Shown here: positions 7,559-59,003 of the stretch, one piece after another | Numbering within the stretch: position 1 is the stretch's first letter | How the letters are laid out: each line of letters begins with the position of its first letter | From: Nitrososphaeraceae archaeon | GTDB lineage: Archaea > Thermoproteota > Nitrososphaeria > Nitrososphaerales > Nitrososphaeraceae | NCBI GenBank assembly: GCA_035454925.1 | Contig: DATIFZ010000067.1 | Location: 2,960-66,959 of the forward strand | Length of the DNA: 64,000 nt | Direction: 5' to 3' | Notes under the pieces: model-generated | What the model was told of the DNA's origin: nothing | The model's input: the letters and a program-made list of their open reading frames with translations, nothing else | Databases searched by the model: none | Made by a program: the position numbers and the translations under genes

Positions 7559-7575
7559 TGTTGACTACCCTTGTC

Positions 7576-8004: not shown

Positions 8005-8011
8005 AATATAT

Positions 8012-8701: not shown

Positions 8702-8745
8702 AACACTATCTACAATTAAAAAGGTTACTGTTTTTCTGGTAATAA

Positions 8746-19187: not shown

Positions 19188-20071
19188 TGAAATATCGCAT
19201 CTACCATGAATGCAACAAATAGTGCCGTCAGATAGGGACTGGATATTTTGAAAAGTAACCACGAAGCCTTCTCACTTGGTTTCATCAGTAGCCACAGTGA
19301 GGTGACTATCATTATAATTCCTCCTGCAATGGCAGTAATAAAGTAAATCAACCCAAACTGATTCAAGAAGAAAGGTATTATGCTAAATACCACCATTAAG
19401 AGAGTCGTACCGGCTATCACTTGAACAGATCTTTTTTCGCCGGCAACTACAGGCAACATGGGAACACCAGCTTTTGTATAATCTTTCCTTACATGCAGTG
19501 CCAAGCTCCAAATATGCGTTGGTATCCATAGGAGAACTAAGCCTGCCATTGCCAATCCAATTTCTAGGTGTTCTGTCGTGACCGCTACATATCCTATTAA
19601 AGCTGGAACACCACCAGAGAATCCTCCAAGGATAATGTTGGTCTGACTCTTTCTTTTTAGCCATTTACTGTATACTATAATATTATCGAAAAGACCGAAC
19701 GCCATGAGTCCCAAAGTTATGTAATTTATCGACCAGGCACAAAATAACGATATAGCGGCCAAGAGCAAACCAAAAATAAGCGCATTCCTGGGTGAAATTC
19801 TTCCAGATGGGATAGGACGAGCCTTAGTTCTATCCATGATGGCATCTATATCACGATCATTATACCCTGTTAAGGCATCTGCAGCTGCCGATCCAGTAAC
19901 TATGCCGACAAGTAGAAAGACCCACTGAAGAGGTGACAGAAAAGTGTCTGTCGAATACGAAGCAGTAATGGCTGAACCAAAAGCAGTAAAAACTAAGAGA
20001 TACCAAATTTTCGGCTTTGTAAGTTCATAATAATTCTTTAACCGATCGGTTACAGTAACTTGTGGAATCAA
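19184..20071 (-). CDS. ctaB: protoheme IX farnesyltransferase (heme O synthase)
   Basis: UbiA-family: YYELTKPKI, GYNDRDIDAIMDRTKARPIPSGRIS, about 8 TM helices. Confidence 0.9.
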   Translation of the reverse strand: MIPQVTVTDRLKNYYELTKPKIWYLLVFTAFGSAITASYSTDTFLSPLQWVFLLVGIVTGSAAADALTGYNDRDIDAIMDRTKARPIPSGRISPRNALIFGLLLAAISLFCAWSINYITLGLMAFGLFDNIIVYSKWLKRKSQTNIILGGFSGGVPALIGYVAVTTEHLEIGLAMAGLVLLWIPTHIWSLALHVRKDYTKAGVPMLPVVAGEKRSVQVIAGTTLLMVVFSIIPFFLNQFGLIYFITAIAGGIIMIVTSLWLLMKPSEKASWLLFKISSPYLTALFVAFMVDAIFH

Positions 20072-31861: not shown

Positions 31862-32010
31862 TAGTTTGTATTTTAGAAAAGAAGGTTATAAGGATATATT
31901 TAATAAAGTAACATCTGAGAGAATATCCGTATTTGAATATTTAATATGGTAACTGCACGACGTTTAAGAAATTTTTGCATCTGGAATACATTTAGTTACG
32001 TTTGAGGCGA

Positions 32011-32250
32011 TTATCCATCATCAGATTTTCTATTCTCTCCACCATTTTCTGTAGTTGTATGTCCTGCACACCAGTAGAAGTCAAAGTTATTGTGACAATT
32101 ATCGCATCTAATTTGATCTCTGATATTATGATCCTTCTGGCCTTCGTTATCATTACAAGGTTGGTAGACGACTTCTTTGTATTTTTCATCTGGGCATGTT
32201 GCCATGTTAGAAAAGTTGCATTGAGGACAGGCGATCGGAAAATTACTCAA
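32011..32250 (-). CDS. small cysteine-rich (double zinc-ribbon-like) protein
   Basis: CPQC...C...C and CDNC...C..H spacing. An alternative frame (31992-32189) is less structured. Confidence 0.4.
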   Translation of the reverse strand: MSNFPIACPQCNFSNMATCPDEKYKEVVYQPCNDNEGQKDHNIRDQIRCDNCHNNFDFYWCAGHTTTENGGENRKSDDG

Positions 32251-32273
32251 TGTTCATTCCTCTATTCTTAGGA

Positions 32274-32420
32274 TTACACCTTTACAAATCCCAGACAAAC
32301 ATTGCAACTTGGACATGAGCATATTGCATAACGAAATTGTTTTCCTGTATCTTCTCTTCCATCGCGGAAGTCTATTTCCGGGTTAGAAAATTCTTGCTTG
32401 CATTCTGGGCACTTTACCAT
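32274..32420 (-). CDS. 48-aa zinc-ribbon protein (not in the supplied ORF track)
   Basis: Hand translation gives MVKCPECKQEFSNPEIDFRDGREDTGKQFRYAICSCPSCNVCLGFVKV*. A TATA-like TTTAAAATATTATTAAA lies about 40-55 nt upstream on the minus strand. Confidence 0.45.
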   Translation of the reverse strand: MVKCPECKQEFSNPEIDFRDGREDTGKQFRYAICSCPSCNVCLGFVKV

Positions 32421-32580
32421 GCTAATCTCTTAATTGTTACTTATTAAATATCTAGTGGCACATTTAATAATATTTTAAACCGGTGGGAAGAATCGTAGTT
32501 TCTGACAAATTAATTTCCCACCCGCATTGTTGGTAATTATGGCACTTACCCTCCACTGCACAATAAATTATAAAATAGTT

Positions 32581-32628
32581 CAAGACTGGTGGGAGATAGA
32601 AGCAGACAGGAGATCCCACCAGTTCTTG
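32581..32628. repeat. 14-bp-stem inverted repeat (CAAGACTGGTGGGA / TCCCACCAGTTCTTG, one bulge, 19-nt loop)
   Basis: Read directly. It shares the GGTGGGA core with a second inverted pair at 32482-32489 / 32515-32522. Confidence 0.8.
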
Positions 32629-33085
32629 CATGATGGTCACAAAGCCTTTCAAAGTGTTGCGAGGAAGTATAATAACATGGCTTAACTAAGTTTACTCTGT
32701 AAGGATGCTTGTTGATTAATACATACCTGATAAAATATCCAATCTAAAATTCAATTCACTATGTAGTTTATCAGACTCAAATATTGAATACGTTTGATTA
32801 ATTGTTAATATAATTTCATTCATTTTAAATTCAATAAGACTACAAATTTTGATATCAGGATTTTTCATATTTTCTAGAACCCAATTTATCAATTCAATCC
32901 TTTTTTTGAGATCTCGTTTGTATGCGCACTCATCTTTTTCACGACAAAGTCAAATTTCTTGTTGTAATACTTGATTGACAGGCATGAAATTAATTCGGGT
33001 AATGAGGATTTAATACACAACGTTCGTTAAAGGGAGGGACTGGTAAAACTTAATGCCGGTGGGAATAGCGGAGTTAACTTCTAAT

Positions 33086-34029
33086 TTATTCTGATCTTAC
33101 TGGAGCAAATTTTTGTATGTCATTATTTTTTCTATCAGAGACATAGACATTTCCGTCATGATCTACGGCTAAATGTTCTGGATCTCTGAATTGTCCTTGG
33201 CCTTTACCAACGGATCCAAATTCGGTAATAAAATCACCCATACTATCAAATTTGGGAATGCGAGGTTGGTTGCCACAACCGGGATCCGATTGTGGATCTG
33301 TAACATACACATTATCGTGTTTATCCAGTGCTATGTGTTCCATATGACAGAACTGGTTGTTCTTACTTCCTTTAGATCCCCACATAAGAATAGGATTTCA
33401 ATTACTGTCAAATTTCTGAACTCGTTCATTATCTCGCTCATTAACAAAGAAATTACCTTTTGAATCCTGCTCAATTGTGGTGGGAAGATTAAACTCACCA
33501 GGTTTATTCCCTAACTCTCCGATGGCCCTTGCAAATATACCGTTTATATCAAATTGTTGAATACGGTTATTTTTAGAGTCTGCAACATATACATATTTTA
33601 GTTGTTTATCTACTTCTACATGCCTTGGATTATCAAATTTCTGAACCCTTGATTTCCCCTATCAGCAACCCAAACATCCCCAGCTCTATCTACATCTAAT
33701 CCATATGGGACTAAAAACTGTCCATCAGCATTTCCCTTTTGTCCAAACGTAAACAGAAAGGTTCCGTTCTTATCAAATACCTGTATACGATTTCCATCCC
33801 TGTCAACAGCGTATAATATCTTGTTGTTGTTATCAAATTCTAAATCACGTGGACGTAAAAATTGACCATCACCCTTACCCTTAGAACCCCATTCAGTAAC
33901 AAAAGAGTACTCATGTGGCTTATCTATAGAACTTTGAACCTGAGCAAAAATATAGCCAGAATAAACCGACAAAGATCCTAATAAAAATACTAAAGTTCCA
34001 AGTATTATTAACAGAATGCAAATTTGCAT
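33086..34029 (-). pseudogene. NHL-repeat beta-propeller protein, disrupted (one frameshift, one in-frame TGA)
   Basis: N-terminal TM/signal plus repeated G.G.GQF..P..l.vD..gn.YVaD..NnRiQ.F units in three consecutive pieces. The frameshift is near 33650 and the TGA is at 33398-33400, where a Gly codon is expected (FDSN*NPILMWGSKG). Confidence 0.7.
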
Positions 34030-34254
34030 CGCAGCTAGTCTATATCTACACTCATGCTAAATCTAAGATATGGTACAACTGTCAAAATGTCCCTATAATT
34101 GGGGCTTTTTAATGATTGGATCAATTTATTCCAATTTAGATACTCGTATTAGAAATTTTAAATAAAAATTTTCACCTAACAATACGCCTGCCTTTCACTT
34201 CATTATTAGACAATGGTTGGTGCATCTGTGTTTCACCGCAAACGCACCAACCAA

Positions 34255-34491
34255 TTAATAGTCATGCGATTCGGAATTCTTGGCCAGCGTCCAGGCCTCT
34301 ATATATAATTCTCTTGCCTCTTTACCATATGCTTGCACTAAGTAGTTAGTGCCTTCATTGGATTTTAATCCTACACAACAATACTCTACTCCGTTACTCA
34401 GGGAATAATCTTTAGGGGAAATTTTTACTATGTCTTTATCTTTCGATAGCATCAACTGTCTAAGCGCATCCGTACTACTCATATACGTCAA
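34255..34491 (-). CDS. hypothetical protein
   Basis: 78-aa ORF. No motif. Confidence 0.3.
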   Translation of the reverse strand: MTYMSSTDALRQLMLSKDKDIVKISPKDYSLSNGVEYCCVGLKSNEGTNYLVQAYGKEARELYIEAWTLAKNSESHDY

Positions 34492-34668
34492 TTTTTACAC
34501 CCCATTCTATCACGCCAACTTTTTGATGAGTATTATAAAGGTGTGTAATGCTTTAAAATTTGCTTATGACTCGATGACTTATTATCTGATCAGTATTTTA
34601 TATTTGCAGAAATAGAATATCTTGTAAAGACAAAGAAGACTTAATAGATATTCCTTTCTAAGAGGAAC

Positions 34669-34926
34669 ATGAAGACCCTTTACTCTGTATTGGCAATACT
34701 GGCCGCATCGGTTATTATCGGAATGGTAACAATAGGCGGTCAGCAAATCTATGCACCTAGAGATTGTGGAGCTTGCGCCGAATTCAAAAAACTGACAGAT
34801 GAATTTGAAAAGGATGTATTGGATGCTGCATCCGTACAACCGCCTGAACCAGATAGAATACAAACATTACTTGATCAATACAATCGTGACGTCTTGGAAC
34901 TATTTCCATCTACATCGCCTAGTTAA
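34669..34926 (+). CDS. small secreted/membrane-anchored protein
   Basis: N-terminal signal/anchor MKTLYSVLAILAASVIIGMV. Preferred over the overlapping antisense ORF 34582-34863. Confidence 0.45.
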   Translation: MKTLYSVLAILAASVIIGMVTIGGQQIYAPRDCGACAEFKKLTDEFEKDVLDAASVQPPEPDRIQTLLDQYNRDVLELFPSTSPS

Positions 34927-35202
34927 ATTATAACTGATGGGCCGATTTGTAAAAGGCGCACCAGCATTCAGATTGCTTTCTGGACTTAATCTAATTTGTA
35001 ATAAATTATCATACACAACAAATAATAAAAAAGTTTAACCGGTCGGGAGTGAGAACAGCAATTGATAAATGCTTAGCGGTAAATATCCTGTATGATTCTA
35101 GTAAATAATTGATTTGAAATTAATTACTCACAAGTCTTCTATGTTATTAACTAAAGAAAAAGGTATTGTAGGCAGCACTTCGTTACCTGTTACTATTTAA
35201 GA

Positions 35203-35571
35203 CTATGGTATATCTGGAATTAATGAAGTAGGTCCGAATACCTCGTCTACTAATACCTCGTCTACTAATATCTCGTGTGTGAATTCATTGTCATCGCCGT
35301 TAGCCGGAGACGTAAGGCCGTTGTCACAACTGAATTGGTTGTTGTTGACGGGGCTGCCCATGCTGTCTATACGCTCATATTCATTCTTTGCCTTACAATC
35401 GTTATCCTGTATTATTTTGTGGGTCCTCTCGTTACAGTTGTTGTCGTCATTGTCTTCACACTGTTCCTTGTCGGCAAATGCTGGTGCTACCTGTGATGTT
35501 CCTGTTCCGGTTAGCGCTGTCAATATTCCTATAGACAGTGCTATTAACATTAACACGTTTTTTGTGTCCAA
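35203..35571 (-). CDS. secreted acidic Cys-containing protein
   Basis: Signal peptide MDTKNVLMLIALSIGILTALTG..AFA, an Asp/Asn-rich body with 4 Cys, and an internal LVDEV duplication. Confidence 0.5.
   Translation of the reverse strand: MDTKNVLMLIALSIGILTALTGTGTSQVAPAFADKEQCEDNDDNNCNERTHKIIQDNDCKAKNEYERIDSMGSPVNNNQFSCDNGLTSPANGDDNEFTHEILVDEVLVDEVFGPTSLIPDIP
35240..35269. repeat. 15-nt tandem duplication (acctcgtctactaat x2, plus a diverged partial third copy extending to about 35280)
   Basis: Read directly. It encodes LVDEVLVDEV in the minus-strand gene. Confidence 0.8.
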
Positions 35572-35883
35572 GTTTGTTATCGTGAAGTGGTACTAAACAA
35601 AGTATAAGTGGAGTGAGTAAGAACAAGCGCTAAAAAACGGAGAGAGTCTTCTTTACTATGTTAAATCTGAATTTAAATATAGAATATTATTCATTCATCT
35701 TATTGTGTATAATGCAAATATTATGTATGATTCTCGTAGATACAAAAGACTTAATAAATATTAGATTCTAAAATACGCATGAAGCCACTTTATTTCTCAT
35801 CTTTGGTAATTTTATATGCTAATAGTAATTGGTGAAATAAAGTGAAATGTCCTAAATGTGGTCACGAGACTTCTTCTGAAGAT

Positions 35884-36228
35884 TTAGTTAAAGATATAGC
35901 AGAATGTCCTTGTGATTGTCATACAGTAACCCCTTGGTCTAATCCATCCAGCATCAATAAGTTTTTTTGTTTCTAAATTTAACTCGTCTTTTGACTGCTC
36001 GCCTTCCGCATCGGCAATCCGATTACTAAAGTCTTCAATCCAGTTAAGCATCTCATCAAGATAATTTCCCTCCGTAACTTTAAAGAATGAAGCATCGAAG
36101 ACTCGTCTATACTCTGGATTATCGACCCGGTCGTCCACCTTTTTCATTCTTAGCATATCGCGTAAATCTACTGAAAGTGACTTGAGTGCATGTTTGTCCT
36201 TTGCTGTAATATCGAGTTCCATTAACAT
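35884..36228 (-). CDS. hypothetical protein
   Basis: 114-aa ORF. Its 3' end overlaps a plus-strand zinc-ribbon mini-ORF (35842-35976), so the true end is uncertain. Confidence 0.35.
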   Translation of the reverse strand: MLMELDITAKDKHALKSLSVDLRDMLRMKKVDDRVDNPEYRRVFDASFFKVTEGNYLDEMLNWIEDFSNRIADAEGEQSKDELNLETKKLIDAGWIRPRGYCMTITRTFCYIFN

Positions 36229-36453
36229 GTAGTCCTGCCAACATATTATAAAACAGTTAAAACCGGTTTAAAGAACTGACAAAAAATGCAAGTACAACTC
36301 CTCACCAATTCTAGGAACCGTATATTAATTTAATCAACAAGGTATAAAATAATTTAAACTGACGGGCGGAGATAAAATCTTATACAAAATGAAAAATGCA
36401 ATGCACTACATTCCTGTAGATTAAATTCTAGTCCATATTCATAATTATGTCAC

Positions 36454-36924
36454 ATGAGTATCAGTACCCGCCGAAAAACTCTCAGTGAGGAAAAGTTAGT
36501 AGCGATTGGAGTAATTGGAGGGATTGCTGCCCTAATACTATTCTTCGTATTAATTAGCGGGGGCCTAGTGAGACATGTTCCAATTACTTGGAAAGAAAAA
36601 ATAGAAACTTCTATAGCATTCAAGACAATTAATGGTAAAATGAACGTTATTGGAATTATCGGCAATAGTGGCATTAATCCAACTTTGTTAATGAGGACAA
36701 AAGACTTTGCCATGGTTTTGACTGTAATAAATCAGGATAATGTTCCTCACATGCTCTATATTGATGGACTTGGTATTAACTCAAAAATTCTAAAGGCTGG
36801 AGAAAATCAAACAATTATATTTTATTCGCCAACGGAAGGCACATACAATTACTATGACAGACTATCATCATCAACCAAGCCCATAGGTCAGATAAAGGCG
36901 GTGAAGATCACGCCATTTGAATAG
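36454..36924 (+). CDS. membrane-anchored cupredoxin-like domain protein lacking the Cys/His/Met copper ligands
   Basis: N-terminal TM helix, then a plastocyanin-like pattern: VLTVINQDNVPHML...AGENQTIIFYSPTEGTYNYYD...GQIKAV. YNYYD replaces the usual Y.Y.C..H motif. Confidence 0.4.
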   Translation: MSISTRRKTLSEEKLVAIGVIGGIAALILFFVLISGGLVRHVPITWKEKIETSIAFKTINGKMNVIGIIGNSGINPTLLMRTKDFAMVLTVINQDNVPHMLYIDGLGINSKILKAGENQTIIFYSPTEGTYNYYDRLSSSTKPIGQIKAVKITPFE

Positions 36925-37287
36925 TCATTTAATCGTCTGACTTTCAATTTTTTTCAATTGCTTGTAATGTTCAAAAATTATAGAGATAAGTATCGGCTGT
37001 AACGGGACAGGGTTACAGGCCATGACTCCCGAGGTGTTATGCAAGTGTGAATAAGACATCATCTCCATCAAAGATCTTTCTTTCGCTTTTATCTAGTTCT
37101 TGTCTAAATATTTTCCACTTTCACCTTACTCTTTCTGATGCAAGTCTATACGAAGGAATTGTTCGGCCCAGAGTTTATTATTGCGAATTATTCAATTTAA
37201 TATCTAAATCACTAATTACGGGAGGAGAGGATAGTATGATTCTAGTCGGTAGAAACAAATTCAATACTTATGATTTGTTCTAGGTGT

Positions 37288-37470
37288 TTATAGTCTGATT
37301 TCCCAAAATGCACCAGTTTTGCAGTGTCTGCAAGGCGGAAAAGTTTCTCCAGCGGTTAGTGGTATTCTTTTTTCGTTTTCTGTGGGTTGACATGTGCTGT
37401 TTTCCATATGTCCCGCAAAATGGTACGTGCCTGTAGAGGGTACAGATTGGCTCGTATGAAATTTTCCCAT
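37288..37470 (-). CDS. small hypothetical protein (C-terminal CxxC)
   Basis: 60-aa ORF ending ...FPPCRHCKTGAFWE. An overlapping ORF in another frame (37280-37477) competes with it. Confidence 0.3.
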   Translation of the reverse strand: MGKFHTSQSVPSTGTYHFAGHMENSTCQPTENEKRIPLTAGETFPPCRHCKTGAFWEIRL

Positions 37471-38177
37471 TACACAAAATATTATTTTGTTTGTTATAAG
37501 GTTTGGAATTAAAATTGAAGGAGAAAATAAGTGGATAACAAAAATATAATTTAAGTAGTATTCAAATAACTAGAACATATATGATACTAATACGGTTCAG
37601 TCTGGATTTCAGACTAGGAAGACACCCTAAAAAGTGAGGCTCCGGAATCTGCTCTTATACTTCATAATTCCCCCTTCTACGTGAATTATATGACAGAAAG
37701 TACTGGACCTAACGCTATAATTTAGATTAACTCAAGTTTAAACACGGTAGATGGCTAACTTTATAGATTAGTTTTTCGAATTTGAAACTATTGAAAAAGT
37801 TTTGCAGCGTTTGCAGAAGAGAATTACCCACAAGTAGTGAGTATTATTTATGCGAGAAATGTCACAAGGATTTAATTATTTCAGAAGATAAATTTGATTA
37901 CATTGAGAATTCAAGACTTTATTATTAGTCTAATCGAAACATGAATTTTTAGGAATTTGCTGATGTGAAAAACTTTACTGCCTTGGGTATGTTTCAATTG
38001 GCACCACTTTACCATGTTACCATCGTTCGTCAGCACTTTAGAATTAACTAACAAATATGATCTAAACTGGGGCTGTATAGCAATGACATTAGGGAAGGTT
38101 ATATTTTGCGAATTTTATTACACCATTGTGGTTATGCGATATGTTAAAAGCTTTCATGATTCAATTTTCGAGATATT

Positions 38178-38600
38178 ATGAAAGCTTCTGAACAAGGGGA
38201 ACTAGACTTATATAAAATAGACAACCAACATTCCCCAACAGGTTATGATGAATTGCTAATGAAAATTGATGATAAATCAATCGATGAACTGGATTTTGTA
38301 AAAAGAGGCGGATTAATCCCAGTTGTGGTTCAGGATATTACTACAAAGGACATTTTAATGCTGGCTTATGCAAATAGAATTGCAATAGAAAATACAGTCA
38401 AGACAGGCAATGCTTGGTTTTGGAGTGTTTCCCGAAATAAACTATGGATGAAAGGAGAAGAATCTGGAAATATTCAAGAAGTGAAGGATATCCTAGTTGA
38501 CTGTGATCAGGACTCGGTGATCTACCTAGTTAATTCAAAAAATCCTGCATGTCATACGGGAAACAGATCCTGTTTCCATAATAGGCTATACCCTCAATAA
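38178..38600 (+). CDS. hisI: phosphoribosyl-AMP cyclohydrolase
   Basis: GLIPVVVQD...LMLAYANRIA...WFWSVSRNKLWMKGEESGN...DCDQD...ACHTGNRSCF. Confidence 0.9.
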   Translation: MKASEQGELDLYKIDNQHSPTGYDELLMKIDDKSIDELDFVKRGGLIPVVVQDITTKDILMLAYANRIAIENTVKTGNAWFWSVSRNKLWMKGEESGNIQEVKDILVDCDQDSVIYLVNSKNPACHTGNRSCFHNRLYPQ

Positions 38601-48709: not shown

Positions 48710-49867
48710 ATGGTAAATAGTGTATGCGTTCTTGGGGCTGGCAGTACGAAATATGGTAAACTAAGTCAAAGCGTTATTGAGTTGGGACTAGATGCGGCAA
48801 AAAACGCGATTGAATCAGCTGGAATTACACCAAAAGATATCCAGGCAGGTTATATCTCAAATGTATTTGGAGTTGCGGATAAACAAGTACATATGGCGCC
48901 CGTATTGATGAGCAACCTTGGAATTCCTCACATCCCAGGGCTAACAATTGAATCTGCTTGCGGTTCAGGGTCTGTGATGTTTAGAGAGGCCTACGCAAAC
49001 GTCGCTGCCGGCTTTTACGATTGTGTACTAGCCGTTGGTGTGGAAAAGGTAACTCATACTGGAACTGCTCTTAGTACCACACTCTTTTCATATTGTTCAG
49101 ACTTTTTTTATGAAGGGGGAAATGGTGCTTCCTTCCCCGGCTTGTTTGCGTCTATCGCCAGAGCTTACCTAACGAAATACAAAGCGACAGAAGAGGACTT
49201 GGCACATGTTGCAATTAAAAATCACGAAAATGGATTCCTAAATCCAAAGGCACACATTAGAAAAAGAATCACAGTAGAGGATGTTTTGAACTCGCCAGTT
49301 GTAGCATCACCCCTAAAGGTTTATGATTGCTGTCCATTTTCTGATGGTGCTTCCGCTGTCATCTTGTGCAGTGAAGACTTTGCAAAGAAGAATGGTAACA
49401 ATTATGTAAAAGTAATTGGTTCAGGAAGAGGTGGTTCGCCTGCTGCAGTACAATCGAGGGAGGATATCACGACAATACCAAGTACGCTAATTGCTGCAAA
49501 CCAAGCATATAAGATGGCAGGAGTGACTCCTAAAGACATTGATTTTGCAGAGGTTCATGATTGCTTTACCATTGCAGAAATTATTGATATAGAGGACTTG
49601 GGATTTTTTAAAAAGGGTATGGGTGGCAATGCTGCAAAGGAAGGAATTACCAAACGTAACGGTGAGATCCCAATTAATCCGTCAGGGGGACTAAAATCCA
49701 AAGGTCACCCAATTGGCGCGACTGGCGTTGGACAAGTTGTCGAAGTTTTCGAACAATTCACCGGAGGAGCTGGAGAAAGAACTGTAGATAATGCTGAGAT
49801 AGCCTTGACGCATAACTTTGGTGCTACTGGAGCAAGTGCAGCAGTTCATATCTTTCAAAAAGTTTAA
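48710..49867 (+). CDS. thiolase (acetyl-CoA C-acetyltransferase, SCP-x/archaeal type)
   Basis: ESACGSGS active-site Cys, EVHDCFT, NPSGGLKSKGHPIGATG. Confidence 0.9.
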   Translation: MVNSVCVLGAGSTKYGKLSQSVIELGLDAAKNAIESAGITPKDIQAGYISNVFGVADKQVHMAPVLMSNLGIPHIPGLTIESACGSGSVMFREAYANVAAGFYDCVLAVGVEKVTHTGTALSTTLFSYCSDFFYEGGNGASFPGLFASIARAYLTKYKATEEDLAHVAIKNHENGFLNPKAHIRKRITVEDVLNSPVVASPLKVYDCCPFSDGASAVILCSEDFAKKNGNNYVKVIGSGRGGSPAAVQSREDITTIPSTLIAANQAYKMAGVTPKDIDFAEVHDCFTIAEIIDIEDLGFFKKGMGGNAAKEGITKRNGEIPINPSGGLKSKGHPIGATGVGQVVEVFEQFTGGAGERTVDNAEIALTHNFGATGASAAVHIFQKV

Positions 49868-49882
49868 TTTTGGTGCAACAGA

Positions 49883-50269
49883 GTGGATAAGAATTCCAGT
49901 ACACATGAGCGATTCATTGAGACTGCAAAGAACGGAAAAATTCTCGCCAGTAAATGCAGGAATTGTGGTAAAGTTATGCTTGAGACAATGTATTACTGCA
50001 GTGGGTGCTCCAAAAGTGATTTTGAATTTGTTGAATTTCCGGGTATTGGCACAGTAGTGACTCATACAATTCAGTCAGTAGCGCCCGAAGGTTTTGAGGA
50101 TGTCAACTCGTACGCCTGGGTAGTCTTCAAGCTGAAGGATGCTCCATTTTCAGCTTCAGGCTTTCTGCCAGGAATTAAAATACCTTCTGATTTACCGATA
50201 GGCTCAAAGGTCATAGTAAAAGGATATGATGCCAAACATGGACTTACATTAGAAAAACAAGCAGACTAA
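49883..50269 (+). CDS. DUF35 zinc-ribbon + OB-fold protein (thiolase partner)
   Basis: CRNCGKV...C..C ribbon followed by an OB-like segment. Starts 16 nt after the thiolase stop. Confidence 0.85.
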   Translation: MDKNSSTHERFIETAKNGKILASKCRNCGKVMLETMYYCSGCSKSDFEFVEFPGIGTVVTHTIQSVAPEGFEDVNSYAWVVFKLKDAPFSASGFLPGIKIPSDLPIGSKVIVKGYDAKHGLTLEKQAD

Positions 50270-50410: not shown

Positions 50411-51016
50411 TTGTTGATGCAGCATAGTACACAGCTTCAGAACGATCTGTCAAGTGCTGCTCAAGTTATTAGTAATCAGATTACAAAATTAAACAAGCTC
50501 TCAAAGAAATTTGATATTATGGATACTCACTTTAGAAAACAAATTGTACAAAACATTAAAGGGGGTAACAATGTTCGCGCCAAGGCATTAGCCAATGAGC
50601 TTGTAAACATACATAGAATCCAACACACTACAAAAAATATGGCAATGTCCCTTGAAGTTGTAGCTCTCCGCTCTGCAATAATAGGTGAATTTGCAATTAT
50701 CATGGATACGATAAATCCAACTATAGATTTGATAAAAGATATCGAGAGAGATATTTCAATGGTAATCCCCACTGCACATGAGGTGTTAAACGATGTTACA
50801 AAAGCTTCATCTGAAATTTTGAATTACAATGTTAATCCCGAGCTCAAAATATCTATGCCTGTAGACGAGGAGGCACTAAAAATTCTAGGAGAAGTTGAAG
50901 AGAGTGTTGAAGAAGAGACTAGACAAAAGCTACCTGACATACCTGCTACAATTAATGTGGTGAAAAAGAGAAATGAATTAGAATCCCTATTAGAGGAAAA
51001 TGAAGTTATGATATAA
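50411..51016 (+). CDS. cdvB: ESCRT-III/Snf7-family protein (CdvB paralogue)
   Basis: Helical hairpin with KGGNNVRAKALANELVNIHRI (the CdvB-like kGn..rAk.yA.El..iRk pattern) and an acidic C-terminal tail. Confidence 0.65.
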   Translation: MLMQHSTQLQNDLSSAAQVISNQITKLNKLSKKFDIMDTHFRKQIVQNIKGGNNVRAKALANELVNIHRIQHTTKNMAMSLEVVALRSAIIGEFAIIMDTINPTIDLIKDIERDISMVIPTAHEVLNDVTKASSEILNYNVNPELKISMPVDEEALKILGEVEESVEEETRQKLPDIPATINVVKKRNELESLLEENEVMI

Positions 51017-51131
51017 TTTTGATTTTCTAACATAAGTTGGTATATTGTTTAGTGGGTTAATTGTTTTGTACTGTTAGTCAATAACTATTTACGACCCAAT
51101 TTTAAATTATCTCAAGATAATATCGGGTGAG

Positions 51132-53255
51132 ATGGAGATAGAGGCGAGCCATGATCTAATAACTCAATCTGAAACTAAGCCTAGTGGCATTTTACAAGCA
51201 GCAAAAAGAGTTAGAATGATTTTCTCTGTTATGGCGAGTCCTAACAGAATCGATATTTTGCGAATCTTAAATTCAAAAGGACCTTTAACTTATTCTGAAT
51301 TAAAATCGTTAGCTGGTTTCAAATCTAAAAAGGAATCAGGTAAATTTGCTTACCATTTAAGGAAGCTCTTGAGGCAGTCACTTGTCGCATTAAATAAGGC
51401 GGAAAGGAGGTACACGATTACCAATCTCGGAAAACTTGTCCTGAGTCTGGCAAGACAAATTGAAGAGAGATCCATTATTGAAAGCGGCAAAATGTACGTG
51501 CGAACTTCTAGACATTCAATCGAAGAATTTAATTCTAATAGAATAACTCAATCATTGGTCCGGGAAGCCAACATGCCTCTTGAACAGGCGCATAAGATAA
51601 CTGAAGAAGTGGAAAACAAAGTTTACAAATTCCAAACGGTCTATCTTACTTCCTCTCTCATTAGAGAGACTGTCAATTCGATATTAATTGAGCATGGTTA
51701 TGAGGAATTCAGATCAAAACTAGCTAGACTAGGTCTTCCGGGCTCCGATATCTCTGAAATGTTTAACAATCCTTTATATAGCAAAAATGGTGTGGAAGGA
51801 ATTTTATCAGAAACATCTCTTGCAGTTTTTTCCGAAAATCTGCTATTCAACACGTTACCTAAGGATATAACTGATATGCATCTTGCCGGCGAACTAAATA
51901 TTTCAAACACCGGGCTTTGGAACTTGGTGCCTGACACCGTATTTATTGATACTCGCAATATCATTGAAAATGGTCTAGACTTTAAAGGAAAATACTTGAA
52001 TGTTTCAAGATTAAAGCCAATTCGGACACTTGATGACATTACAGAGGTTCTACCGGTATTGATTTCGGTCTTAAGCAGAGAAACTTCAAGGGAGATAATA
52101 CTTGATAATTTTGTTTCTAGCATTTCGAAGAGGATTCAGGAGAGTAGTGAATCAATAGAGGCTGCATTTTCTAGGGCATTTATATCATCATCCATTTCAA
52201 GGTCATTTTCATCTTCAGGTTTTCCAGTAGTTACTTTTCCTATCTATCTTGATGAAAGCTCGATAACCAGATCTATTTTGGTGGCCTACATGAAATATTT
52301 AGACCACACGCCTATTCCAACTATTGCGTTATCTCTTGTTGGTAAGGATCATGAGTCTCTAGGTACAAATTCGAATCTAATAGCTAGCATAGTCAAAAAT
52401 GGTGGAATTCTGTCCGCATCCAAGAACTTCAGAAGCCATATGGGGATTGTAAAAAATGCGGCTGACGAGAAAGCTAGTTCTATTGTAAGCTTGCAGTCCT
52501 TAGCAATAAATCTGCCAAGACTAGCCTATCAGTCAAATAAAGATGAAACCTATTTCAGAGCCAGATTAGCACTGATGATAAAGCCAGCTATTTCAGCTCT
52601 GTTGGCAAGAAAGAACTCCATACTGGAAATGATTCGAAGAGAAATGCTTCCTGTAGTGGCCAACATTACCCAAATGATGCAGTTAAGCAGGATGAATCTG
52701 GTAATTAACCTGACTGGAGTTAGGGAGTCGGTTTACAATATACTAGGACATGAATTTGACGGAGAAGAAATAATTCAAAAGGTATTACATACTGCTGTTG
52801 ATGTTGCTTCAGATCAAGGGAAACAATTTGGAGATGATTCCATAAGAATTGCTATGATCACAGATGACAGCAGTAATAGACTAGCTTCTTTAGACTCTGA
52901 AAAATATGGGAACATGTATCGACAAGCTGGTGATAAAATGATGATAAAGTCTTATTCACAAGGTCTTCTTGTAAACGGGCGAGATTTACTTGCAAATAGC
53001 GGTCCTATAATAGAATCAACTAACTCAATTGACGGATTACTGAATGGTGGCGTTTCTATCAATGTTGACACTAGTGATCTGGAGGATAACGAATTCATAG
53101 AGTCCGTTAACAAATCTTGCGGTTTCAATTTCTTCAGGCCAATATACAGGAACAAAATTTGTAGCTCGTGCGGCACCAAGATTTCTATGTCGTCCGAAGT
53201 TTGTAAAAGCTGCGGATCTACCAATTTTTCCAATATAATAATGCCGAATCAATAA
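51132..53255 (+). CDS. wHTH (ArsR-like) + ATP-cone + degenerate NrdD-like (class III RNR) body + C-terminal zinc ribbon; no glycyl-radical segment
   Basis: The wHTH reads SPNRIDILRILNSKGPLTYSELK..FAYHLRKL..RYTITNLG. The ATP-cone reads MYVRTSRHSIEEFNSNRITQSL...LTSSLIRETVNSILIEHGY. NrdD-like landmarks are MHLAGELNISN, ENGLDFKG...LKPIRTLDDI and LQSLAINLPRLAY. The ribbon is CSSCG...CKSCG, and the protein ends 14 aa after it. Confidence 0.7.
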   Translation: MEIEASHDLITQSETKPSGILQAAKRVRMIFSVMASPNRIDILRILNSKGPLTYSELKSLAGFKSKKESGKFAYHLRKLLRQSLVALNKAERRYTITNLGKLVLSLARQIEERSIIESGKMYVRTSRHSIEEFNSNRITQSLVREANMPLEQAHKITEEVENKVYKFQTVYLTSSLIRETVNSILIEHGYEEFRSKLARLGLPGSDISEMFNNPLYSKNGVEGILSETSLAVFSENLLFNTLPKDITDMHLAGELNISNTGLWNLVPDTVFIDTRNIIENGLDFKGKYLNVSRLKPIRTLDDITEVLPVLISVLSRETSREIILDNFVSSISKRIQESSESIEAAFSRAFISSSISRSFSSSGFPVVTFPIYLDESSITRSILVAYMKYLDHTPIPTIALSLVGKDHESLGTNSNLIASIVKNGGILSASKNFRSHMGIVKNAADEKASSIVSLQSLAINLPRLAYQSNKDETYFRARLALMIKPAISALLARKNSILEMIRREMLPVVANITQMMQLSRMNLVINLTGVRESVYNILGHEFDGEEIIQKVLHTAVDVASDQGKQFGDDSIRIAMITDDSSNRLASLDSEKYGNMYRQAGDKMMIKSYSQGLLVNGRDLLANSGPIIESTNSIDGLLNGGVSINVDTSDLEDNEFIESVNKSCGFNFFRPIYRNKICSSCGTKISMSSEVCKSCGSTNFSNIIMPNQ

Positions 53256-53299
53256 GTTTAAACCTTCATTGTGTTATTTTTAATTAAATAATATTTTTA

Positions 53300-53314
53300 A
53301 GCTAGGCTCTAGCT
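53300..53314. promoter_or_regulatory. palindrome AGCTAG-gct-CTAGCT between a TATA-like box and the nrdJ start codon
   Basis: Read directly. The TATA-like aaataatattttta is at about 53286-53299 and the ATG is at 53327. Confidence 0.3.
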
Positions 53315-53326
53315 GTATAGAACGTT

Positions 53327-56050
53327 ATGGCAAAGGAAATTACCGAAATTGATGATTCTTCGCACGCAAATAAAAAAGCTATCGCGCAAATTAGGAAGAG
53401 GGACAAAGGACTAGTTGATTTTAATAATTCAAAGATTTCTAATGCCATCTACAAAGCGTTAATGGCAGCAGGTAAAACAGATTACAAGCTTGCTGAAAGA
53501 TTATCAGAAAAAGTTGTCCAAAAAATGGATCAACAATTTTCTATTTTAGATACCAACCGAATTCCGAGTGTAGAAGATGTCCAGGATATGGTTGAATCAA
53601 TCTTGATTGAAGAAGGACTATCAGAAACTGCAAAGGCATATATTCTATACAGACATGAACGCCGCAAGGTTAGAGATGAAAAGAAGAAAATTCTAAATAA
53701 GAAGGATTTGGACGAAGTTGATAAGTCATTTGACATTAATTCTCTACGAGTGCTAGCTTCACGCTACTTGTTAAGAGATAACAATAATGATATAATAGAA
53801 GATCCTAAATTGCTTTTTGAACGGGTCGCAATTCTCGTAACAATCCCCGATATACTGCATGATGCAGAATTGTATTCAAATAGTGAAGTAGTAGTTCAAA
53901 ATATTACTGAAGCTGAAGAATATTACAAAAAAATTGATGATTTTCACATGAAACTAAAAATTGGCAATCACTATCTTAACCGATTTCATTTTGAATCAAT
54001 GATTAGGCATTACATTAACTTGGCAAAAAGTGGACGTATGAAAGTTAGCTTTAAGGACCTTTTGCGACTTATTGCCGAGGGGCGCCTGTCGAAGTACTCT
54101 GATAGAATTATTGAATATAATAATCTGATGGTTACAAAGGACTTTTTACCAAACACTCCAACTCTTATGAATGCTGGAGCAAAACTTGGCCAGCTGTCAG
54201 CATGTTTTGTATTGGATATGAAAGACGACATGACGGAGATTATGAAATCTTCCACTGACGCAGCAATGATTTTCAAATCTGGAGGAGGAGTTGGAATTAA
54301 TTACTCAAAACTTCGTCCCGAAGGTGATATCGTAGCATCAACCTCTGGTGTTGCTTCGGGACCGATCTCGTTCATGAGAATCATAGACACAATTACTGAT
54401 GTAGTAAAACAGGGCGGAAAAAGAAGGGGAGCAAACATGGGAATCATGGAATCATGGCATCCGGATATTGAAAAGTTCGTGACCGCCAAAACTAAGCCAG
54501 GCATATTCGAGAACTTTAACGTAAGCGTTGGAATTTGGAGTGATTTCTGGGAATCGATAATTAATGAAAATAATCATCGATACACACTGAAGAATCCTAC
54601 TACCAATGAACCCGTCAAGCAAATTGACTCACATCAGCTCTTGGATTTAATTACTTTTAGTGCATGGAAAAGTGCAGAGCCAGGCGTTATATTCTTTGAT
54701 AATATCAATAAATATAATCCGTGTATCAACGTAAAGGAAGGACCACTTAGAGCAACAAATCCCTGTGGGGAGCAATCATTATACCCATATGAGTCATGCA
54801 ATTTAGGATCCATCAATTTAGCAAACTTTGTGAAGCGTAATATAGATGGAAAGTATGAATTTGATTGGCAACGTTACGAGCAAGCAATACGTCTTTCGAC
54901 CCGATTTTTGGATAATGTAATAGACATGAACAAATATCCGGTTGAAGAAATCGAACATAATACACAGTTAACAAGGAGAATCGGACTAGGAATAATGGGT
55001 ATTGCTGATCTCCTATTTACTTTAGAGATACCATACAATTCGAAAGAAGGTTACGAGTTTATGAACAGAGTAGCTGAAGCACTTTCTTATTATAGCATGG
55101 AAGAAAGCGTTGCGATTGCAAAAGCAAGAGGCGCATTTCCATTATTCAACCAGACTGATTATGTTGAAGGAAAAATGATACCAGTGGCTGGATACTATGA
55201 AATTCCAAAACGATACCATTCTTATGACTGGGATTCATTAGTTGAGAAGATTGGTAAATATGGAATCAGAAACTCATGGACTACTACAATCGCACCTACC
55301 GGAACATTGTCTATGATAGCTGACACTTCGAACGGAGTCGAACCAGTTTTTGCACTAGTTTTCGAAAAACGGGTCACCGTAGGAAGATTCTTTTACACAA
55401 ATAGAATATTTGAAAATATGCTTAAAGAAAATGGCTTGTATAATGATGAAATTTTAACGAAAATTGCAAATAACTATGGTTCTGTGAGAGGATTGGCAGA
55501 AATCCCAGAAAGGCTACAGAAAATATTTGTAACAGCCATTGATGTGCATTGGACGGATCATCTTATGGCACAAGCAATTTGGCAAAAATGGATTAGCAAC
55601 GCAATAGCAAAAACTATTAACATGCCGTCTGATGTCACGGTCGAAGATATCAAGGCTGCCTATCTATTGTCTCATGAAATGGGATTGAAGGGCGTTACGG
55701 TCTACAGAGATGGCTCTAGGCATGAACAGGTGCTACATATAACTGGAAATGACAAAGAGAAAAAATTCATTGTAAAGCCAAGCTCTCATGTGGTTGACCA
55801 TATTCATAGTAACATTAAGCAAGATTATGTGATGAGCCAGGTTGAAAAAGTGTTTAGAGATACAGAAGAAATAGAGGCAACTGAAACCACAGTAAATGTA
55901 TCTCAATCCAAGCTGAAAATGAACATGAATGCACTGCCTAATGACTATCAGGAGCACGAAACGTGTCCGTCATGTAATGCAAGGCTGATAATAACTGAAG
56001 GCTGCAATATGTGCATTGAATGTGGATTTAGCTCTTGTATGTCAGGTTAA
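53327..56050 (+). CDS. nrdJ: adenosylcobalamin-dependent ribonucleotide reductase (class II) with N-terminal ATP-cone and C-terminal zinc ribbon
   Basis: ATP-cone (IRKRDKGLVDFNNSKISNAIYKA), PTLMNAG, SACFVL, NPCGEQSLYPYESCNLGSINL, TIAPTGT, C-terminal CPSC...CNMCIEC. Confidence 0.92.
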   Translation: MAKEITEIDDSSHANKKAIAQIRKRDKGLVDFNNSKISNAIYKALMAAGKTDYKLAERLSEKVVQKMDQQFSILDTNRIPSVEDVQDMVESILIEEGLSETAKAYILYRHERRKVRDEKKKILNKKDLDEVDKSFDINSLRVLASRYLLRDNNNDIIEDPKLLFERVAILVTIPDILHDAELYSNSEVVVQNITEAEEYYKKIDDFHMKLKIGNHYLNRFHFESMIRHYINLAKSGRMKVSFKDLLRLIAEGRLSKYSDRIIEYNNLMVTKDFLPNTPTLMNAGAKLGQLSACFVLDMKDDMTEIMKSSTDAAMIFKSGGGVGINYSKLRPEGDIVASTSGVASGPISFMRIIDTITDVVKQGGKRRGANMGIMESWHPDIEKFVTAKTKPGIFENFNVSVGIWSDFWESIINENNHRYTLKNPTTNEPVKQIDSHQLLDLITFSAWKSAEPGVIFFDNINKYNPCINVKEGPLRATNPCGEQSLYPYESCNLGSINLANFVKRNIDGKYEFDWQRYEQAIRLSTRFLDNVIDMNKYPVEEIEHNTQLTRRIGLGIMGIADLLFTLEIPYNSKEGYEFMNRVAEALSYYSMEESVAIAKARGAFPLFNQTDYVEGKMIPVAGYYEIPKRYHSYDWDSLVEKIGKYGIRNSWTTTIAPTGTLSMIADTSNGVEPVFALVFEKRVTVGRFFYTNRIFENMLKENGLYNDEILTKIANNYGSVRGLAEIPERLQKIFVTAIDVHWTDHLMAQAIWQKWISNAIAKTINMPSDVTVEDIKAAYLLSHEMGLKGVTVYRDGSRHEQVLHITGNDKEKKFIVKPSSHVVDHIHSNIKQDYVMSQVEKVFRDTEEIEATETTVNVSQSKLKMNMNALPNDYQEHETCPSCNARLIITEGCNMCIECGFSSCMSG

Positions 56051-58064: not shown

Positions 58065-59003
58065 ATGAAGACTAATAGATTCTTCAATCGAGATGTTGTT
58101 TCAATTAAGGATTTTAAAAGAGAGGATCTTGAATATTTATTTGAAAAAACGGATAAGATGAAGAAGCTTAATCCCAAAGAAAAGGACGAATTAGGAAAAG
58201 CCAGGATAATGGGATATCTGTTTTATGAACCAAGTACCAGAACCAGAATGAGTTTTGAGGCTGCAATGGCATCGATAGGCGGTAGCTCCATTGGAATATC
58301 TGACCTGAAATCATCTTCAATAGAAAAGGGAGAGAGTTTGCAAGACACTGTGAGGGTTATGGATCTTTATTCAGATATCATGATTCTGCGTCATCAACTT
58401 GATGGATCGAGCAAATTTGCAGCAGAAATTTCTGATCATCCTATCATTAATGGTGGTAGCGGAAGTGAAGAGCATCCAACACAAGCTATGCTGGATTTAT
58501 ATACAATAACAAAGGAAAAAAAGAAAATTGATGGATTAAAAATTTGTATATTGGGAGACTTGAAATATGGCAGAACAATTTACTCCTTATTATACGGACT
58601 TTCTAATTATGATGTAGAAATCATTTTAGTTTCACCGCCAACATTACAAATTCGACAAGAGTCCATTTATGGTTTAAAAGATAAAATGAAAATTATAGAA
58701 TTAACAGAATTAAACGACACAGTTTTTCAAAATTCAGACATATTATACGTGACTAGGATACAAAAGGAAAGATTTTCAGACCCACAGGAATATGAAAAAG
58801 TTAAAGGCACGTATACAATAGATAGTAACATCCTGAAGCGGTTTAAATCTGATATCTCTATTATGCATCCCTTGCCTAGAATAGATGAAATATCGCAGGA
58901 TATAGACAGTAGATCAAATGCAATTTATTTTAAGCAAGCATCTTATGGCAAGGATTTAAGATCAGCACTGTTGGCATTAATATTAAATGAATCTCCCCTT
59001 TAA
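58065..59003 (+). CDS. pyrB: aspartate carbamoyltransferase catalytic subunit
   Basis: FYEPSTRTRMSFE, HPTQ, HPLPR. Confidence 0.95.
   Translation: MKTNRFFNRDVVSIKDFKREDLEYLFEKTDKMKKLNPKEKDELGKARIMGYLFYEPSTRTRMSFEAAMASIGGSSIGISDLKSSSIEKGESLQDTVRVMDLYSDIMILRHQLDGSSKFAAEISDHPIINGGSGSEEHPTQAMLDLYTITKEKKKIDGLKICILGDLKYGRTIYSLLYGLSNYDVEIILVSPPTLQIRQESIYGLKDKMKIIELTELNDTVFQNSDILYVTRIQKERFSDPQEYEKVKGTYTIDSNILKRFKSDISIMHPLPRIDEISQDIDSRSNAIYFKQASYGKDLRSALLALILNESPL

Follow-up and report, generated by a model that had tools for sequence, protein, structure and literature searches.

The 64,000-nt stretch of DNA analyzed here (hereafter the window; positions 2,960 to 66,959 of contig DATIFZ010000067.1, assembly GCA_035454925.1, from a Nitrososphaeraceae archaeon) carries, next to the ribonucleotide reductase (RNR) gene nrdJ, an open reading frame (ORF) whose 707-aa product joins a winged helix-turn-helix (wHTH), an ATP-cone, and a body related to NrdD, the class III or anaerobic RNR. 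The ORF occupies 51132..53255 on the forward strand, stop codon included, starts with ATG, and ends 71 nt upstream of nrdJ. A preliminary description, made from the sequence alone, had proposed both this architecture and a role in the nucleotide-sensing control of the adjacent RNR. All three parts were recovered by Pfam above threshold: DUF7347/HTH_20 at aa 30-104 (E 4e-10 and 1e-7), the ATP-cone PF03477 at aa 121-193 (E 7e-12; 46 bits, cutoff 25.8), and NRDD PF13597 at aa 445-698 (E 2e-16; 60 bits, cutoff 26), the last corresponding to positions 270-531 of a 562-position profile. A single-sequence search of the PDB with the ATP-cone alone returned no match; the evidence for this module is that from Pfam. 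The 907-aa product of nrdJ is an adenosylcobalamin-dependent class II RNR, with Pfam Ribonuc_red_lgN and lgC barrel domains, an ATP-cone of its own, and a score of 773 bits against the NCBIfam NrdJ model TIGR02504 (cutoff 400).

A family alignment of 72 sequences was built, and an AlphaFold2 model made from it reached a predicted local distance difference test (pLDDT) value of 90.4 and a predicted template modeling (TM) score of 0.87. When this model was compared with the PDB using Foldseek, the first 36 matches were all class III RNRs (E 4e-17 to 2e-9, target TM 0.46-0.68), among them NrdD from S. thermophilus, T. maritima, P. copri, and phage T4, and class I R1 proteins and other glycyl-radical enzymes ranked after them. 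The structural search and the Pfam NRDD match thus agree on the NrdD-like fold that had been suspected.

The N-terminal 118 residues were also modeled alone (pLDDT 89.6). They adopt the α1-α2-α3-αR-β1-β2-α5 topology of ArsR/SmtB-family regulators (by DSSP, helices at 19-34, 37-49, 54-61, and 66-81, strands at 85-88 and 93-96, and a last helix at 98-117), and superpose on CzrA, SmtB, HlyU, and CadC with TM scores of 0.65-0.75 at a root-mean-square deviation of about 2.5 Å (for CzrA, TM 0.73-0.75 at 2.5 Å). A profile of this domain, searched against the PDB, retrieved almost exclusively members of the same family, with ArsR (6j05, E 2e-4) as the best match and HlyU, NmtR, SmtB, and CzrA among the others. 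The recognition helix bears a family-wide motif, GKFAYHLRxL (G70-L79), that includes the HL+xL signature of ArsR/SmtB regulators. ArsR/SmtB proteins dimerize by α1 and α5; ligands bound near α5 alter the spacing of the recognition helices, and allosteric sites in this region tune DNA affinity. The 707-aa protein differs from these small, stand-alone dimers in that its α5 (aa 98-117) leads straight into the ATP-cone and a 500-aa body, and in that its effector, by analogy, is expected to be a nucleotide, where theirs is a metal or a redox signal. Against the NCBIfam model HTH_metalloreg it scored 23 bits, compared with a cutoff of 55.

Catalytic residues, family breadth, and selection

From cone to ribbon the protein is homologous to NrdD, with a 10-stranded barrel and the NLPR, HxxG, and RxxxxD motifs. 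The helical N-terminal part of the body, aligned with E. coli and archaeal NrdD, keeps TRLGLP and H250-x2-G253; the latter lies in the segment MHLAGELNISN, which the preliminary description had likened to an NrdD motif and which aligned with AHERGDIHYHD of E. coli NrdD and MHMKGAIHIHE of an archaeal NrdD. The proposed NLPR segment proved to be aa 460-463 (52509-52520), which aligned with the NLPR motif of NrdD and in which N460 is invariant among the 72 family members. Likewise, the four cysteines of the C-terminal ribbon (C677-x2-C680-x10-C691-x2-C694) align with the zinc ligands C644/C647/C662/C665 of E. coli NrdD, leaving this Zn(Cys)4 ribbon as the sole remnant of the glycyl-radical domain. 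Past C694 the chain continues for just 13 residues (not 14, as first counted), and there is indeed no room for the RVxGY loop, which is absent.

The finger loop of NrdD carries the thiyl-radical Cys in an MGCR or MCCR motif, and the βA Cys is 92.6% conserved in class III RNRs (PMC9669993); cone and core are separated by an NxN substrate flap (PMC11226230). When the protein was aligned with NrdD of E. coli and with a bona fide archaeal NrdD encoded beside a homolog in locus L003, the alignments placed F433 (52428-52430) at the thiyl-radical position (E. coli C384) and T269 at that of the βA Cys (E. coli C175), and the NxN flap fell within a 7-residue deletion, with Asn at neither position. Judged by these alignments, the 707-aa protein has lost all of the catalytic hallmarks of NrdD, as had been predicted. 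It also scored only 56.8 bits against the NCBIfam NrdD equivalog TIGR02487 (cutoff 326), and lay further still under the cutoffs of the remaining NrdD equivalogs, its scores being 5- to 50-fold below them. The missing residues and the sub-cutoff equivalog scores together indicate that it shares the fold and ancestry of NrdD without belonging to that class by function.

This loss extends to the relatives. Across the family the thiyl-radical column holds S, N, I, T, or V, with no conserved Cys. Among 124 long-type members, which retain a C-terminal tail, any Cys in the finger-loop window was found in only nine, and in the βA column Cys never occurred, 102 of the proteins having Glu there. The radical Gly was replaced in 117 of the 124 (92 with Ala, 16 with Ser, and 9 with Thr) and kept in three, all of which lack both the βA Cys and the following Tyr; across the 124, the Tyr position held Lys in 98 and Arg in 15. 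An apparent RxxGY in one further protein, P0360, sits upstream of the ribbon and was dismissed as spurious. By contrast, four real NrdDs encoded beside family members keep every one of these residues (C...NxN...SR[IV][TV]GY). The suspicion that homologs might carry an intact Gly-radical domain, making this a truncated real enzyme, was therefore not borne out.

Consistent with the preliminary description, we found no activase in the window: no real ORF contains the radical-SAM motif CxxxCxxC, and Pfam scans of 50 of the larger ORFs, covering all but a few of those predicted, detected neither NrdG nor a second RNR. The earlier remark that nrdJ is the only RNR here can be made for the window alone. 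No NrdG-like gene was found within 5-6 kb in 80 related loci, although E. coli NrdG was the sole query and the search had low sensitivity.

A HMMER search of 1.8 billion cluster representatives (clusters at 50% identity) returned 880 clusters at E <= 1e-3, 159 of them at E <= 1e-30, and at least 598 GTDB species representatives matched the recognition-helix pattern [EDN][AS]G[KR]F[AGV]YHL[RK]. The family spans Nitrososphaeria and Bathyarchaeia and falls into three size classes: (i) proteins of ~660-720 aa from Nitrososphaeria, which resemble the query and end after the ribbon; (ii) the long type, of ~740-800 aa, from Bathyarchaeia, in which a 30-residue tail is kept and which databases call "anaerobic RNR", "HTH domain-containing", or "hypothetical"; and (iii) proteins of ~560-650 aa without a ribbon. 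One long-type protein, P0163, is collinear from cone to C-terminus with the real NrdD encoded immediately downstream, with 32% identity over 720 aa (E 2e-122), indicating that the family is a paralog of archaeal NrdD with an added wHTH. The cone of the window protein is itself 31% identical to the cone and linker of an archaeal NrdD. An archaeal, cone-bearing class III RNR would accordingly have been duplicated, one copy shedding its radical chemistry and acquiring an N-terminal ArsR/SmtB-type winged helix. The Pfam NRDD score falls stepwise, from 483 bits in a real NrdD to 242-308 in the long type, 110 in an intermediate form, 56-60 in the type found in ammonia-oxidizing archaea (AOA), and 33 in the short type, while the HTH and cone scores stay level.

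The gene is under strong purifying selection. Its ratio of nonsynonymous to synonymous substitution rates (dN/dS) was 0.06-0.09 relative to six orthologs, at synonymous divergence up to saturation. The ATP-cone is the most conserved module of the family (Table 1), and in the 72-sequence alignment the invariant positions concentrate in the cone and in the recognition helix, with H75, Y94, and G100 of the wHTH also invariant. The low ratios and invariant positions of these two modules suggest that the DNA-binding head and the nucleotide sensor matter most. The barrel, too, is constrained, though more loosely, as would be expected of a scaffold.

The identical protein at NCBI is labeled [quoted passage not shown], and NCBI (PGAP) and JGI give thousands of family proteins this name or that of "ribonucleoside-triphosphate reductase (formate)". 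The missing catalytic residues contradict such a name, including in aerobic ammonia oxidizers. Anaerobic DNA synthesis is at risk of being falsely inferred for these organisms, and RNRs of being counted twice in Bathyarchaeia.

Genomic context

We assembled two sets of loci: 80 from GTDB species of AOA, all Nitrososphaeria, of which 68 have at least 1.5 kb downstream of the candidate regulator, and 80 Bathyarchaeia-type loci from metagenomes, 59 of which have enough downstream sequence. In 61 of the 68 AOA loci nrdJ is the next same-strand gene, after a gap of 60-1331 nt. Of the 59 Bathyarchaeia-type loci, 39 have a real nrdD downstream in the same orientation and one has a class II RNR; close downstream of the candidate regulator in 29 of the 39 there is a glutaredoxin- or thioredoxin-like ORF, mostly between it and nrdD. 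Loci inspected singly gave the same picture, with a class II RNR adjoining in L001 and a class III RNR in L003, L091, L092, and L093. Synteny with RNR genes was thus recovered in 61/68 and 40/59 loci, with two RNR classes. The slot persists although its occupant is of class III in Bathyarchaeia and of class II in AOA and L001/L158, which is difficult to explain by inertia alone; of the evidence from gene context, this pairing across RNR classes argues most strongly that the two genes are functionally linked.

Other neighbors also recur, pyrB/pyrI in many lineages, distant ones included. pyrB lies within 5 kb in L003, L087, L090, and L091-L093; among the Bathyarchaeia-type loci it does so in 20 of the 39 in which NrdD adjoins and in eight others without an adjacent RNR. 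The order thiolase - ChsH2-like zinc-ribbon/OB protein - candidate regulator - pyrB is common to the window (48710-50269 and 58065-59003, with other genes between the candidate regulator and pyrB) and a distant long-type contig (L087, 3090-10019). As pyrB/pyrI and thiolase/ChsH2 recur as neighbors, the window included, part of the gene order appears to be ancestral.

Directly upstream of the candidate regulator in the window is a Snf7/ESCRT-III (CdvB-like) gene (50411-51016, +; Pfam Snf7 E 3e-5, just under the gathering score). This arrangement was found in essentially all Nitrososphaeraceae loci and not in Nitrosopumilaceae; a cell-division paralog beside genes of deoxynucleoside triphosphate (dNTP) supply may point to coupling with the cell cycle. 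In two loci where nrdJ is not adjacent, the gene is followed, ~0.1-1.4 kb away on the opposite strand, by DNA-repair genes: a uracil-DNA glycosylase gene in L016 (9527-10135, -), where a 129-aa ORF that lacks annotation comes first, and an ERCC4/XPF nuclease gene in L030 (8239-8973, -).

In L091 (8709-10919) and L093 (8922-11093) the real NrdD has no ATP-cone by Pfam and the dead paralog has one, whereas in L003 and L092 both proteins carry cones. The cone may have been handed from enzyme to regulator in some lineages.

A candidate nucleotide-sensing regulator and its alternatives

Considering sequence, model, and context together, we think that the protein is probably a nucleotide-sensing transcription factor for the adjacent RNR gene, i.e., nrdJ here and nrdD in Bathyarchaeia; it may also control further genes of nucleotide metabolism. 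The proposal of the preliminary description is therefore supported as a candidate, as the profile and fold searches, the state of the Gly-radical domain, the synteny, and the modeling of the wHTH all failed to refute it.

In NrdD, the cones pair with dATP and separate with ATP, repositioning the connector to the core (PMC12662201), and in the P. copri enzyme dATP drives the formation of tetramers (PMC11226230). NrdR forms a DNA-binding tetramer with dATP plus ATP and non-binding oligomers with ATP alone (PMC9110341; 10.1101/2024.05.27.596032). By analogy, the dead barrel and the helical N-terminal part would hold the protein as a dimer, as in real NrdD, and the two ATP-cones would sense the ATP/dATP ratio. 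Movement of the cones, paired by dATP and freed by ATP, would be transmitted via α5 to the two ArsR-like heads, where it would fix the spacing of the recognition helices. The dATP-loaded form would bind an inverted-repeat operator at the RNR promoter and repress transcription, and the ATP-only form would release it, as postulated from NrdR. We infer that the protein dimerizes and binds nucleotides and DNA, as well as which way it would respond and which operator it would recognize.

Like NrdR, the protein fuses a DNA-binding module to an ATP-cone, is tied genomically to RNR genes of several classes, and would be expected to read ATP and dATP and to switch DNA binding through quaternary structure (PMC9110341). 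It differs in that (i) its DNA-binding part is an ArsR/SmtB winged helix and not an N-terminal Zn-ribbon; (ii) it comprises a whole dead NrdD, at 707 aa compared with ~150 aa; (iii) its Zn ribbon is C-terminal, a relic of the NrdD glycyl-radical domain and not a DNA reader; and (iv) its cone descends from that of archaeal NrdD. No NrdR model in NCBIfam matched it. From these comparisons, the relation to NrdR is one of analogy, not membership, and the DNA-binding parts are not homologous. The preliminary description had held that archaea lack NrdR; it is in fact rare among them, not absent (PMC9110341).

Enzymes have been turned into regulators in archaea before. ThiR and RbkR are such transcription factors, in which a winged helix is fused to an enzyme-derived, ligand-sensing domain and which control the enzyme's own pathway, a design that the present protein seems to parallel. 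Here, however, the pathway and the scaffold are different, the latter being a large radical enzyme whose activity is entirely lost, and sensing is probably carried out by the accessory ATP-cone rather than by the old active site. RbkR is an archaeal riboflavin kinase/regulator (PMC5397151). Searches of the full-text literature available to us and of the main RNR family surveys brought up no account of a protein that joins a wHTH, an ATP-cone, and an NrdD-like body, although surveys of domain architecture, for example of HTH or ATP-cone domains, may mention one. A broad survey of RNR insertions and extensions does not contain the terms helix-turn-helix, DNA-binding, or transcription.

How archaea set RNR expression is largely unknown, and the family provides a concrete candidate in two of Earth's most abundant archaeal groups, the ammonia oxidizers of soil and ocean and the Bathyarchaeia of sediments. 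It would also offer an evolutionary series from an enzyme to a regulator of its own pathway: the real NrdD; an HTH-fused dead paralog with a relic radical loop, adjoining the real NrdD; and a truncated form adjoining a B12-dependent RNR in aerobes. The ATP-cone would have undergone a natural experiment, its movement rewired from the control of an active-site flap to that of a DNA-binding head.

Several observations weigh against a dedicated RNR repressor. Seven of the 68 AOA loci, 19 of the 59 Bathyarchaeia-type loci, and the distant members L004, L005, L006, and L088 have no adjacent RNR gene (in the Bathyarchaeia-type loci, eight have pyrB alone nearby and 11 neither), and the synteny may be partly inherited gene order rather than functional coupling. 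The retention of a 480-aa barrel is unexplained by a simple repressor model. In the columns aligned with Gln114 and Glu181 of the T4 specificity site no conserved Gln or Glu was found, the alignment being unreliable there. The operator evidence is also mixed. TATA-like sequences lie ~30 nt before the ATG of both the candidate regulator and nrdJ, each followed by a perfect palindrome (Table 1), but neither palindrome is rarer than chance, i.e., TTATCTCAAGATAA and AGCTAGGCTCTAGCT are each unique in the window, where ~0.8 and ~1.6 matches, respectively, are expected at up to one mismatch, and they are unrelated to one another; they are candidates only. Of the eight relatives in the window's clade in which nrdJ adjoins, seven keep the outer AGCTA...TAGCT of AGCTAGGCTCTAGCT and one, L015, has it in degenerate form, and the block 51017..51131 is conserved among close relatives. 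A search for an operator common to the two promoters gave a best ungapped 16-mer per genome that never rose above shuffled controls, and k-mer enrichment in the promoters of the candidate regulator and of nrdJ in AOA, and of the candidate regulator and the RNR gene in Bathyarchaeia, found only TATA-like words shared by all four sets; by neither approach was an operator common to all lineages found.

The only recurrent element was an inverted repeat, TGT[CT]AA-N5-6-TTGA, which two lineages have ahead of their RNR genes. It matches 27 times in the 0.97 Mb of the AOA loci, and 12 of these matches, all in Nitrosopumilaceae, closely precede nrdJ and lie on its coding strand, 11 of them at -87 to -123 of the called ATG (the call in L081 is doubtful); in the Bathyarchaeia-type loci, eight of 19 matches in 0.70 Mb lie 22-197 nt past the stop codon of the candidate regulator, upstream of the glutaredoxin gene or nrdD. 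Observed values of 10/62 and 5/43 compare with 0.29 per set in composition-matched nulls. Two points count against the repeat: the pattern was drawn by eye from the same, phylogenetically related loci in which it was later counted, and it is absent from the window's own clade. We regard it as a candidate operator, and as a lead only. The same repeat occurs at a constant distance, ~185-190 nt, upstream of the candidate regulator itself in the Bathyarchaeia-type loci L113 (4810), L140 (4817, -), and L143 (1670), where it may be an autoregulatory site or an element of a divergent neighbor.

A bolder version of the regulator hypothesis, which we put forward tentatively and consider rather doubtful, is that a complete class III RNR was retired from catalysis to become the body of the main dNTP-sensing transcription factor of Bathyarchaeia and Nitrososphaeria, an independent invention of the NrdR principle. 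In its boldest form the barrel would be more than a scaffold: the conserved pocket residues (NLPR, R583, D588, Y608, and G640) would still bind a nucleotide, so that the former active site would add a second nucleotide signal to the ATP/dATP signal of the cones, and RNR, pyrimidine synthesis (pyrBI), and perhaps cell-cycle genes would be placed under joint control.

Among the alternatives, the one that survives best, though we judge it unlikely, is that of a DNA-binding nucleotide sensor whose main job is not nrd transcription, i.e., a wider regulator or a chromatin or replication factor, with the RNR adjacency partly inherited. Such a protein could make pyrimidine synthesis (pyrBI), DNA repair, or the cell cycle responsive to dNTP or ATP status. 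It would suit the pyrB/pyrI genes beside members without an RNR neighbor (L087, L090, and the eight "pyrB only" loci), the Snf7/CdvB-like gene upstream in Nitrososphaeraceae, the uracil-DNA glycosylase and ERCC4 genes where nrdJ is missing, the thiolase - ChsH2 - regulator - pyrB order conserved over a large distance, and the four distant members without any adjacent nucleotide-metabolism gene. It does not readily account for the persistence of the downstream RNR slot through an exchange of RNR class, nor for the use of an RNR-specific ATP-cone as sensor on a scaffold that is itself an RNR.

Less likely again is a protein-protein regulator, in which the NrdD-like body heterodimerizes with, or docks on, a real RNR as a non-catalytic, cone-bearing subunit and the HTH is secondary. 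Bathyarchaeial members are 32% identical over their full length to the neighboring NrdD, including the dimer-interface helices, and the coneless real NrdDs of L091 and L093, next to cone-bearing paralogs, suggest that a cone could be supplied in trans, for which NrdB-borne cones are a precedent (PMC5794259). However, the AOA loci examined have no NrdD partner and AOA NrdJ has its own cone, yet the gene is still under strong selection there; moreover, only one other part of the protein is as tightly constrained as the wHTH (dN/dS 0.008) or more so, and the recognition helix is nearly invariant across the family.

That the protein functions as an anaerobic ribonucleoside-triphosphate reductase, perhaps by an unusual mechanism, we consider highly improbable: the names given by NCBI and JGI, the NrdD fold, and the above-threshold Pfam NRDD score speak for it, but it is refuted at the defining residues, the NCBIfam equivalog scores are far under their cutoffs, the window scans and the E. 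coli NrdG query (of low sensitivity) found no activase nearby, and the hosts include aerobic ammonia oxidizers. There is next to no chance that it is a functionless, decaying remnant of nrdD, as the stepwise fall of the NRDD score (483, 308, 110, 60, and 33 bits) might suggest, given the purifying selection on the whole gene and on the barrel itself (dN/dS 0.12) and the intact reading frame in at least 598 species.

Promoter regions and other features of the window

Table 1. Features of the candidate regulator gene, its flanks, and nearby genes in the window, with selection and conservation by module
Feature	Coordinates	Strand	Evidence or remark	dN/dS	Mean pairwise family identity
Regulator upstream region	51017..51131		sequence		
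Box GTCAATAACTATTTAC	51077-51092		upstream of regulator		
TATA-like TTTTAAAT	51100-51107		upstream of regulator		
Perfect palindrome TTATCTCAAGATAA	51107-51120		upstream of regulator		
Shine-Dalgarno-like GGGTGA	51126-51131		upstream of regulator		
wHTH + ATP-cone + catalytically dead NrdD-like protein gene	51132..53255	+	ORF list, Pfam, AlphaFold2, dN/dS		
ArsR/SmtB-type wHTH, aa 19-117	51186..51482	+	Pfam, PDB profile search, AlphaFold2 + Foldseek	0.008	43%
ATP-cone, aa 118-198	51483..51725	+	Pfam PF03477, identity to archaeal NrdD cone, dN/dS	0.001	54%
Linker + helical N-terminal part of NrdD body, aa 199-290	51726..52001	+	alignment with E. coli and archaeal NrdD	0.039 (helical N-body)	35%
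Decayed 10-stranded α/β barrel, aa 291-665	52002..53126	+	Foldseek, residue mapping, Pfam NRDD, dN/dS	0.119	23%
Zn(Cys)4 ribbon C677/C680/C691/C694	53160..53213	+	alignment to E. coli NrdD, Pfam zinc-ribbon matches		
Box ATCAATAAGTTTAAAC	53248-53263		overlaps regulator stop codon		
Intergenic region, presumed nrdJ promoter	53256..53326		sequence		
TATA-like TTTTTAA	53294-53300		upstream of nrdJ		
Perfect palindrome AGCTAGGCTCTAGCT	53300-53314		between TATA and nrdJ ATG		
nrdJ, presumed regulated gene	53327..56050	+	Pfam, NCBIfam TIGR02504		
pyrB-like aspartate carbamoyltransferase	58065..59003	+	Pfam OTCace_N + OTCace		

An 18-mer, [AG]TACAGAATTTTATACAA, found after the candidate regulator in ~33 Bathyarchaeia-type loci, was first read as an operator, but we do not claim it as one: it fits an archaeal B-recognition element (BRE; cRnaAnt) plus TATA, although a second TATA-like block lies ~25 nt downstream of it. 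The spacer between the candidate regulator and nrdJ is ~380-400 nt in L008, L010, L012, L019, and L022, compared with 70-90 nt in the window, L007, L009, L014, and L054. The long spacers, from close relatives, contain an insertion of ~300 nt, which could be a small mobile element or a duplication. The proximal ~70-nt nrdJ promoter block is preserved whole in them, together with a copy of the sequence found across the regulator's stop codon in the window. A riboswitch or known RNA was considered for the long spacers of Nitrosopumilaceae, and no Rfam match was found in four such loci or in the window. At gathering thresholds Rfam gave no match anywhere in the window, and hence no tRNA was detected.

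Elsewhere in the window, the Pfam scans of 50 of the larger ORFs identified housekeeping genes only. The "heme O synthase" mentioned in the preliminary description as a sign of an aerobic host corresponds to a UbiA-family gene (19184-20071), with which that name is compatible; the identity is no finer than the UbiA family. A 6-kb stretch (~31950-38180) has almost no ORF of at least 110 aa; Pfam matched two features in it, an NHL-repeat fragment (33616-34029, -) and a small cupredoxin-like ORF (36454-36924), with three further ORFs of 110-122 aa outside the scan. At 4900-9351 (-) there is a complete-looking archaeal riboflavin cluster, with genes for a RibD_C reductase, an amidohydrolase, GTP cyclohydrolase III, lumazine synthase, DHBP synthase, and riboflavin synthase. 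The GTP cyclohydrolase III is also a weak match to the minimal CRISPR polymerase domain (mCpol, E 2e-7), because of the shared cyclase/polymerase palm fold. Next to this cluster, at 9495-10607 (+), a 370-aa fusion protein combines an N-terminal Rieske [2Fe-2S] domain with an NADPH-dependent FMN reductase/flavodoxin-like domain, an unusual pairing in a single chain.

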